This document shows positions 46,499 to 47,190 of a DNA stretch of 64,000 bases, piece after piece; position 1 is the stretch's first letter; each line of letters begins with the position of its first letter. A program made the position numbers and the translations under genes. A model generated the notes under the pieces. It saw only the letters and a list, made by a program, of their open reading frames with translations. It was not told where the DNA came from and ran no database searches. The stretch comes from a virus (taxonomy: Duplodnaviria; Heunggongvirae; Uroviricota; Caudoviricetes), in the IMG/VR virus record IMGVR_UViG_3300029516_000004, positions 1-64,000 of that record; one strand, given 5' to 3'.

Positions 46499-46585
46499 TT
46501 ACCCATGCGCGACGATGCCGCCAAAAGTGATAGAGAACAGCCAGAAATAGATCGCGGCCATAATGATTTTGAATGCCGTGTTCAT
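46499..46585 (-). CDS. 28-aa hydrophobic peptide (MNTAFKIIMAAIYFWLFSITFGGIVAHG), type-I-toxin-like
   Basis: ATG 46585 preceded by GGAG 8 nt upstream and by CCAATCAATCA; single predicted TM helix; C1 operator-like site about 85 nt upstream. Confidence 0.4.
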   Translation of the reverse strand: MNTAFKIIMAAIYFWLFSITFGGIVAHG

Positions 46586-46613
46586 ATTTTCAGCTCCTGT
46601 GATTGATTGGATA

Positions 46614-46640
46614 CATGCCGCGCCTTGCGGCATGTTTTTA
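46614..46640 (+). terminator. Plus-strand intrinsic terminator overlapping the peptide leader
   Basis: catgccgc-gcctt-gcggcatg followed by tttttatttt; U-run only on plus strand. Confidence 0.4.
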
Positions 46641-46667
46641 TTTTCACTTCCCCTGCCTTAAAAATCT

Positions 46668-46684
46668 ATATTTATTAGAGCAAT
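46668..46684 (-). promoter_or_regulatory. C1 operator-like site
   Basis: atatttattagagcaat, 16/17. Confidence 0.7.
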
Positions 46685-47190
46685 TATTGTTGATGAAGAA
46701 GCGCATTTTCATACTCCCTGACCATTAATGTAAGTACGCCGTGACTCCTGAAAACACGCGCCACTTCAATCTTATCTTCCAGCGCGAACGCAATTTTACT
46801 TAGACCAATTTTCTTCAGGAGATCAATCTTTGCTGGACCGTCATTTCTGTCATCGGTGGCAGGACGCATAGATAGCAAAGGCTCCGCCCCATTTGTTACG
46901 TGCTTACGCAACCAGGCTCGTGTTTTATCCCTGGCTATCTCACAGCGCCCGGTTACAAACCAGAGGGTGTAAATGCCGGACAACTGGCGCACCATATCAA
47001 TAACTGGAGTGATGGGAGCATCAGTGTCACAGGCAAGGTTAAACTCGTTCCAGTGCTCTGTTAATGCACCTTTGCCAGGTGGTGGAAGTAAATGCAGCCT
47101 GTCTTCCGTTGCCTCTGATATCGTCCCATCAATATCTACTATGACGATGTACGGACGTTCCTGGTGTGCGTGTTTATTGAAAATACTCAA
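46684..47190 (-). CDS. HAD-superfamily phosphatase-like protein
   Basis: HAD motif I VIVDIDGTIS, motif II-like FVTGR, C-terminal acidic motif. Confidence 0.6.
   Translation of the reverse strand: MSIFNKHAHQERPYIVIVDIDGTISEATEDRLHLLPPPGKGALTEHWNEFNLACDTDAPITPVIDMVRQLSGIYTLWFVTGRCEIARDKTRAWLRKHVTNGAEPLLSMRPATDDRNDGPAKIDLLKKIGLSKIAFALEDKIEVARVFRSHGVLTLMVREYENALLHQQ

Follow-up and report, generated by a model that had tools for sequence, protein, structure and literature searches.

In bacteriophages P1 and P7, the c4 antisense RNA of the immI region reportedly acts on the leader of icd-ant, a unit under a C1 operator whose short first open reading frame (ORF) is coupled to the gene downstream; the small RNA is said to pair beside the ribosome-binding site (RBS) of that ORF, with translational repression and Rho-dependent polarity. 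Here we analyse a locus of comparable layout in a P1-like phage-plasmid, using a stretch of 64,000 nucleotides (positions 1 to 64,000 of IMG/VR record IMGVR_UViG_3300029516_000004, hereafter the window). The locus lies on the minus strand and joins a C1 operator, a leader with a hairpin and a 28-codon ORF (hereafter the small ORF). We propose, at about even confidence, that it forms the control region at the front of the early Op88 unit of P1, that is, a C1-controlled leader that would be repressed by a small RNA (sRNA) and would encode a membrane peptide. The candidate sRNA, here called the 30511 RNA, sets the locus apart from this nearest precedent: c4 is cis-encoded on the same transcript and processed, whereas the 30511 RNA would have a gene to itself, 16 kb away, for which a promoter and a terminator are predicted. 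The locus also has no sequence or Rfam relation to C4, its first ORF specifies a 28-aa hydrophobic peptide rather than Icd, and in the window no gene follows it.

A second comparison is offered by toxin-antitoxin (TA) modules of type I whose antitoxin RNA is encoded in trans or divergently (tisB/istR-1, dinQ/agrB, zorO/orzO, shoB/ohsC, ralR/ralA). The likeness consists of a hydrophobic peptide of less than 30 aa with a single transmembrane (TM) segment, a repressor-controlled promoter (C1 here, LexA in the case of the tisB and dinQ toxin genes) and sRNA complementarity in the 5′ untranslated region (UTR) near the RBS. However, the present peptide has no homology to a toxin family, the putative sRNA gene is not adjacent and has another predicted target, the ORF heads an operon in most relatives, and the complementarity extends over 11–13 nt as opposed to about 16–23 nt. 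With hok/sok and ibs/sib the locus shares an antisense-strand terminator placed so that an RNA ending there would cover the RBS, and with mok-hok a leader ORF coupled to a downstream reading frame; unlike hok/sok and ibs/sib, it has no antisense promoter in its conserved segment, and cover of this kind would come only from hsdR read-through in the window.

The operator is itself a described element. It was annotated in P1 as Op88/OpmgT (Lobocka et al. 2004 annotation; GenBank M25414, X98146) in the same orientation and at the same position after pap, but that annotation has no ORF, motif or terminator between operator and pmgT, and hsd genes have taken the place of the operon body in the window. 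The 30511 RNA, as predicted, resembles Hfq-type sRNAs (RybB, OmrA/B, prophage sRNAs) in its free 5′ seed, internal hairpin, Rho-independent terminator with U7 and multiple RBS-proximal targets, and an A-rich tract (GAAAAUAAAAAC) lies upstream of its target site here; it differs from them in having no Rfam family.

A predicted trans-acting RNA and its complementary sites

The candidate sRNA gene (30477..30579, plus strand, scan prediction) is flanked by the c8 stop codon and the ref operator, contains no ORF and is unannotated in P1. It is predicted to consist of an extended −10 promoter (TTTTCA-17-TGcTATACT), a 5′ seed (UGAUUGAUUGG, 30512-30522, plus strand), a small hairpin and a one-way terminator (30552-30572 then U7, plus strand), which would yield a product of ~70 nt with a free 5′ end (fold z = −3.3). 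Its identity to the P1 copy is 93%, it hardly varies among 106 viral contigs, and ~697 plasmids carry it; the seed is invariant in nearly all of the 106 loci. Own promoter, own terminator, absence of an ORF and a conserved single-stranded seed all come together here in silico, each as a prediction. Local E-value scans with Rfam covariance models returned no match for either this locus or the small-ORF locus, only noise below threshold (GcvB, for example, scored 20 bits where the threshold is 42).

The first nucleotides of the 30511 RNA, UGAUUGAUUGG(AU), are perfectly complementary over 13 contiguous nt to positions 46600-46612 on the minus strand. There, AUCCAAUCAAUCA forms an unpaired leader segment directly 5′ of the Shine-Dalgarno (SD) sequence of the small ORF, in the layout CCAATCAATCA-C-AGGAG-8 nt-ATG, and the predicted leader fold leaves the 11-nt motif CCAATCAATCA (46600-46610, minus strand) unpaired, with the hairpin on one side and the SD on the other. 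In exact form the motif occurs three times in 64 kb, where ~0.03 would be expected for an 11-mer, and these copies are confined to the same three places in the window and in P1 positions 1-48000. A second copy belongs to the cra leader (32197..32220, minus strand), where it reads CCAATCAATCA-G-AGGTG-AAAA-ATG with a 4-nt spacer; across 29 distinct cra leaders, drawn from 82 loci, the motif does not vary. The cra (cre-associated) gene is a likely second target of the sRNA, judging from this complementarity, which suggests post-transcriptional control in the cre region.

When the 16-nt 5′ end was scanned with RNAduplex against both strands of the window, the small-ORF leader was the best non-self site at −21.5 kcal/mol, over a background of −6.6 ± 2.4, and the cra leader reached −20.2 kcal/mol. 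Perfect seed complementarity of at least 10 nt occurs at 5 loci against ~0.6 expected (about 8-fold), and the two longest matches, 13 nt in the small-ORF leader and 12 nt in cra, both end one base 5′ of an SD. The initial annotation had suggested that the 30511 RNA could pair in trans with this leader, and the predicted promoter and terminator of the RNA together with the rank of the site make this plausible in silico. By way of example, UGAUUCAUUGG would serve as a seed mutant and CCAAUGAAUCA as the matching compensatory target mutant.

Other seed matches, of 10–11 nt, are found at 48495-48505 (minus strand, within pmgS codons 7-10) and 57448-57458 (plus strand), neither of them beside an SD. 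A further one at 36757-36768 (plus strand), likewise not beside an SD, is antisense to the 3′ end of a 150-aa ORF (36765-37217, minus strand).

Among relatives, the motif in the small-ORF leader varies only by one A>G change and one 4-nt deletion. The former replaces a pair with the sRNA by a G-U pair and pairing is kept; the latter (L029, L030, L032) turns CCAATCAATCA into CCAATCA and leaves 9 contiguous pairs, with the sRNA seed unchanged in the same contigs (sRNA loci L124, L150, L170). A literature search found no report of the small ORF, of an sRNA near c8/ref, or of Op88. While the operator was already known, the link between sRNA and target is apparently new and appears to be undescribed.

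On the ref side of the ref operator, the stretch 30000-30385 has no homology to P1, such homology beginning at 30386, so that the ref region appears to have been replaced in this element.

Op88 and its exchangeable operon body

The C1 operator Op88/OpmgT (ATTGCTCTAATAAATAT, 46668..46684, minus strand) matches the consensus ATTGCTCTAATAAATTT at 16 of 17 positions, and its first base is the final base of the pap stop codon. Consensus-like C1 sites (17-mer, at most 3 mismatches) number 14 in the window against 0.39 expected. Position and orientation, right after pap, are those of the annotated P1 OpmgT (formerly Op88) and P7 Op(hea), and P7 has exactly the same 17-mer. In the P1 GenBank record the homologous site is annotated as a monovalent C1 operator with two predicted sigma-70 promoters, P1pmgT and P2pmgT; in the P1 and P7 records no gene is annotated between the operator and pmgT or upf86.8. 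Promoter-like hexamers overlap the operator (46640..46712, minus strand) at positions that correspond by offset to P1pmgT and P2pmgT, with a scan match of ATGAAA-18-AATAAT, all of them predictions, and nowhere does the locus vary more than in this promoter/operator segment. The initial annotation had placed a C1 operator here and the small ORF under C1 control. Both claims agree with the identity of the site as the known Op88, by which transcription toward the small ORF is repressed in the lysogen and freed when C1 is inactivated.

Upstream on the minus strand come pmgS and pap, followed by operator, leader and small ORF. The pap gene (3′-phosphatase, 46684..47190, minus strand) lies directly 5′ of the leader, and a terminator scan found no minus-strand terminator between the two.

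Homologous loci were gathered in three ways: via Pap (80 viral contigs and 2 genomes), by the leader pattern in metagenomes (50), and by the same pattern in viral contigs (82). The analysis then covered 103 distinct homologous segments from viral contigs, metagenomes, genomes and reference phages. In P1, P7 and 60 distinct segments of a 'pmgT type', the small ORF is followed by TAA-GGGGGATGC-ATG, where the ATG opens a pmgT-like gene. The stop codon of the small ORF stands 10 nt before the pmgT ATG in P1 and P7, inside the pmgT SD; on the strength of this overlap, the small ORF of these phages and their pmgT-type relatives is read as a tightly coupled cistron at the head of the Op88 operon.

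Another 37 distinct segments, the window among them, are of an 'hsd type': their cargo is an hsdM-hsdS-hsdR cassette of type I in convergent orientation, and no gene comes after the small ORF. In the window, homology to P1 and P7 ends at the cargo junction (46495..46498), exactly 4 nt past the small-ORF stop, beyond which the cassette has taken the place of pmgT and the genes behind it, and hsdR (type I restriction subunit, 43273..46419, plus strand) faces the small ORF. In two further segments (L054 and L074, about 3605-3800), other cargo has recombined inside codon 20, and the ORF that results is longer and chimeric (MNTAFKIIMAAIYFWLFSINKKTLIVSIV...). P1-like phage-plasmids are recognised as having a hyper-variable cargo region that runs from pmgT to humD (PMC9603915).

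About 280 IncF-type plasmids carry only 46495-46578 (84 bp) of the locus. The one examined (L327, NZ_CP027537.1 32436-34919) has an IS1-truncated scar beside hsdR, and from this plasmid the 84-bp IncF copies were judged to be scars of that kind and rejected as independent evidence. That IncF plasmids hold the hsdR end together with 84 bp of the small ORF implies capture of the cassette by these conjugative plasmids from a P1-like element.

The leader hairpin and possible antisense transcription

Between operator and motif, a G+C-rich stem of 9-10 bp (10 pairs, 6 of them G-C, in the terminator scan) has a different meaning on each strand. On the plus strand it is an intrinsic terminator (46613..46645, stem 46613-46635 then TTTTTATTTT), the sole terminator-like site that the scan found in 46300-46800. 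On the minus strand an A-run lies 5′ of the stem and no U-run follows it, as befits a leader hairpin in the mRNA rather than a terminator; the minus-strand RNA folds into a 9-bp hairpin with z = −3.65. The hairpin with its plus-strand U-run, pointed out in the initial annotation, is in this respect a canonical terminator, and it is also kept in P1. It stands exactly at the border of the variable cargo region, as would suit an insulator. Wobble asymmetry among stem variants was used as a strand test, in which three variants were compatible with the minus strand, one with the plus strand and one with neither, too few to decide. The loop and tail of the terminator resemble those of the 30511 RNA terminator (local alignment, z ~4), which may mean that the sRNA gene and its target share an origin.

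The first canonical terminator past the hsdR stop (46419) is this same element. With no canonical terminator between 46419 and 46613, the hsdR mRNA would have a 3′ UTR that runs antisense over the whole small ORF and its RBS and ends at 46645. In the interval from the hsdR stop to the small ORF, a perfect 10-bp palindrome (46437-46466, CTTGCGGGTT...AACCCGCAAG) was considered as an hsdR terminator and set aside, since neither strand shows a U-run; it may mark a boundary of the cassette or be a recombination feature.

Transcription released at Op88 would, in turn, run antisense into the hsdR 3′ end in hsd-type elements. Conceivably this could lower restriction during lytic growth.

A short cis-antisense RNA that could cover the RBS had also been suggested in the initial annotation, and here the result was negative: neither a scan tool nor a check by eye found a plus-strand promoter in the conserved segment 46495-46612, in the window or in P1. 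Of the −10 candidates considered on that strand, CATATT (46583-46588) is CATATC in several relatives and has no −35 hexamer or properly spaced TG, and CATAAT (46559-46564) has neither a −35 hexamer nor a TG. TATACT at the hsd junction (46489-46494) and TATTTT also have no −35 and no properly spaced TG. In the absence of such a promoter a dedicated cis-antisense RNA is not supported.

Coding potential of the small ORF

The small ORF (MNTAFKIIMAAIYFWLFSITFGGIVAHG; 46499..46585 on the minus strand, stop included, with the ATG at 46585 and the TAA at 46501-46499) is preceded by an SD, AGGAG (46594..46598, minus strand), which stands 8 nt before the ATG and is conserved in relatives. Its 28-aa product has a grand average of hydropathy (GRAVY) of 1.30 and a best 19-residue Kyte-Doolittle window of 2.10, which predicts one TM helix; RBS, frame and single-TM peptide are in agreement with the initial annotation. 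For comparison, the six frames of the window hold 498 ATG ORFs of 22-45 aa, of which 7 match it in hydrophobicity, 26 come with an SD, and 3 combine the two properties. As a whole, the set of elements at the locus exceeds what chance would give and recurs across elements of Punavirus type.

The gene has no name; some records sporadically call it 'hypothetical' or 'membrane protein', and it is annotated neither in P1 and P7 nor by PGAP in hsd-type plasmids. The SJ46 record has a 44-aa, 5′-extended version annotated as 'membrane protein'. This version starts at an ATG that lies within the hairpin and has no SD, which makes the 28-aa form the credible one.

The ORF is full-length in 100 of the 103 distinct segments, all of which keep its start, frame and stop, and no nonsense or frameshift change occurs in any of the 103; two of the remaining three are L054 and L074, with recombinant C-termini from codon 20. 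Nucleotide diversity in the small ORF (0.015) is three times lower than in pap (0.045) and close to that of pmgS (0.012), and by codon position it amounts to 0.012, 0.007 and 0.027, that is, the third position exceeds the first and the first the second. Distinct variants comprise 9 synonymous and 14 non-synonymous changes over 18.3 and 65.7 sites, respectively, giving a ratio of non-synonymous to synonymous rates (dN/dS) of ~0.4. Frequent polymorphisms are synonymous, and the non-synonymous ones are mostly rare and conservative. Hsd-type elements show 8 synonymous to 10 non-synonymous changes, a similar or no worse proportion though they have no downstream gene to couple. We consider translation of the small ORF likely, and conservation, SD geometry and composition together point to a real single-pass membrane peptide of 28 residues.

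Weighing the alternatives

Several observations weigh against an sRNA-repressed leader peptide. One unrelated site in the window also reaches −20.2 kcal/mol, and energy alone is therefore not discriminating. The sRNA variant G11A is not compensated in the target, and compensatory covariation between seed and target was not found in a family that is too narrow for it (at least 90% identity); distant blastn searches with leader and sRNA returned only matches of at least 80% identity. The arrangement motif-N-AGG(A/T)G, common to both targets, could reflect a duplicated RBS module. The coding signal is weak (binomial p 0.03 under equal rates, 0.19 when transition bias is allowed for), and 'synonymous' changes, of which the ORF frame has 9, number 5-8 in the remaining five frames. 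Promoter hexamers are poorer in the window than in P1. P1 has no plus-strand gene upstream of the kept terminator, and termination of hsdR transcripts is consequently not its ancestral role. Finally, the literature search found no RNA-seq, transcription start site, Ribo-seq or proteomics data on the locus.

The most serious alternative, which we regard as unlikely, is a non-coding leader: a hairpin, an sRNA or protein site and a pmgT SD region, in which the 28 codons would be at most a regulatory upstream ORF with an irrelevant product. It would account for the weak substitution signal and for the missing annotation in P1, P7 and the PGAP-annotated hsd-type plasmids. Synonymous sites in codons 1-21 are almost invariant, which suggests constraint at the nucleotide level, recombination at codon 20 in L054 and L074 swaps the C-terminus without obvious harm, and the overlap of the ORF stop with the pmgT SD is typical of coupling ORFs. 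It is harder to reconcile with a strong SD at ideal spacing, with an ORF that stays intact at dN/dS < 1 in hsd-type elements that have no downstream gene, with the mostly conservative nature of the few non-synonymous changes, and with a TM-helix-grade composition that is rare in random small ORFs (7/498).

The reading put forward in the initial annotation, a true type I TA-like module, is in our estimate quite unlikely. It would make the 28-aa peptide a membrane-damaging toxin and a cis-antisense RNA ending at 46613-46645, the 30511 RNA in trans, or both, its antitoxin, with a role in lysis timing, abortive infection or addiction. The peptide falls within the type I toxin range in size and hydropathy, the RBS region shows complementarity to an RNA, a plus-strand terminator stands right there, and its resemblance to the sRNA terminator (z ~4) hints at a paralogous 'seed-terminator' unit. 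In hsd-type elements, moreover, hsdR read-through would give a full-length antisense RNA, and the repressor-controlled promoter parallels the LexA-controlled ones of tisB and dinQ.

Against this stand the results of the searches for homologues. Pfam, NCBIfam and PADLOC gave no match for the peptide at E ≤ 10, and the best PHROG match (E = 0.16, a family of unknown function) was not significant. A search of 5.8 billion proteins, in which the 44-aa extended ORF was the query, returned only near-identical E. coli P1-like entries and no homologue beyond P1-like elements. No homology to Hok, Ldr, TisB, Ibs, ShoB, Fst or another type I toxin family, nor to defence models, was found, and membership of any of these toxin families is not supported. 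The candidate antitoxin gene is 16 kb off and has a second predicted target, cra; the conserved segment has no plus-strand promoter, as set out above; and in most relatives the small ORF is the first cistron of an operon rather than a stand-alone toxin gene. With neither an adjacent antisense gene nor toxin-family homology, the locus departs from a type I TA module in two defining respects. CRISPR interference (CRISPRi) likewise scored the neighbouring pmgT, pap and pmgS as non-essential, with no essentiality phenotype (PMC10695390).

Plasmid addiction, one of the roles first suggested, is mechanistically improbable for a gene that C1 represses in the lysogen. Such a gene cannot switch on after plasmid loss, which makes post-segregational killing implausible, and P1 already carries phd-doc. 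Toxin-like activity of the peptide is possible but unsupported. The initial annotation was in part right about the locus as a whole: each of the features that it described in the sequence is there at the coordinates given, and operator, ORF, terminator and trans complementarity stand, while the first-cistron position in the P1/P7 pmgT operon and hsdR as the obvious candidate for a source of antisense RNA in the window had been overlooked.

It is very doubtful, finally, that CCAATCAATCA is no sRNA target but an RBS-context module that was duplicated, or an element that binds protein or enhances translation, in an ordinary C1-controlled promoter-leader whose hairpin and U-run insulate pap-pmgS from cargo transcription: the shared motif-N-AGG(A/T)G, the want of compensatory covariation and a terminator exactly at the border of the recognised variable region, where an insulator would fit, speak for it, but the third copy is inverted and a predicted extended −10 promoter is so placed that transcription would begin at the motif, with a hairpin and one-way terminator and no ORF after it, seed complementarity is enriched ~8-fold in the window, and the two mRNA copies have no similarity beyond motif and SD.

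Other features of the window

The assignment of the window to the P1-like phage-plasmids of Punavirus type comes from a megablast search with 46200-47300, which matched 19 phage and 999 plasmid records at 90–99% identity. In an Rfam scan of the 64-kb window at gathering level, tRNAs alone passed and no C4 antisense RNA reached threshold. Three tRNA genes lie on the minus strand (59971-60043, 61478-61550 and 61556-61628). Near them, from ~60154 to 60047 on the same strand, is another small ORF that has both an SD and a segment of TM grade (MGFWDFADKHPIVLVVIAGIVVGGIAGVIEALRKQ).

Proposed regulation and its meaning

Taken together, the locus is probably best described as a C1-controlled and probably sRNA-controlled leader peptide, with a likeness to type I TA modules by analogy only. 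In the regulation that we propose for it, C1 bound at Op88 blocks the promoter in the lysogen, as annotation and homology show. Inactivation of C1, or read-through from pap, would then allow the leader to be transcribed and the 28-aa peptide to be translated, and in P1-type relatives this translation would probably be coupled to the variable cargo operon (pmgT). The sRNA, proposed to be transcribed constitutively from its site 16 kb from the small ORF, would pair in trans with the unpaired CCAAUCAAUCA that abuts the SD and repress initiation, a step suggested by complementarity, geometry and enrichment, and it would act on cra too. It could be a second lock on leaky or early transcripts, or set a threshold or delay after induction, and by analogy with P1 c4 RNA and icd-ant it could impose polarity on downstream genes. 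Specific to elements such as the window, convergent hsdR transcripts that stop at the plus-strand terminator would add a cis-antisense cover over the orphaned peptide gene.

A bolder version of these ideas, which we hold to be improbable, is a dispersed type I TA-like circuit: an undescribed sRNA regulon in which C1 and the sRNA would form a double lock on a membrane-active peptide for lysis timing or abortive infection, and the hsdR 3′ UTR would have been recruited as an extra cis-antisense silencer.

P1 is among the most studied phages, and P1-like phage-plasmids commonly carry resistance or defence cargo in Enterobacteriaceae; for the Op88 operon and for cra there is no known function or post-transcriptional control. 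Were the proposal wrong, the locus would come down to the Op88 promoter region already known, with a small ORF that is incidental. If it is right, P1 would have a second antisense-type regulator besides c4, one that links the cre region with the early operon, and an unannotated membrane peptide would be made on induction. A conserved 'head' of promoter, leader and peptide would, moreover, drive any cargo inserted in variable region 8.

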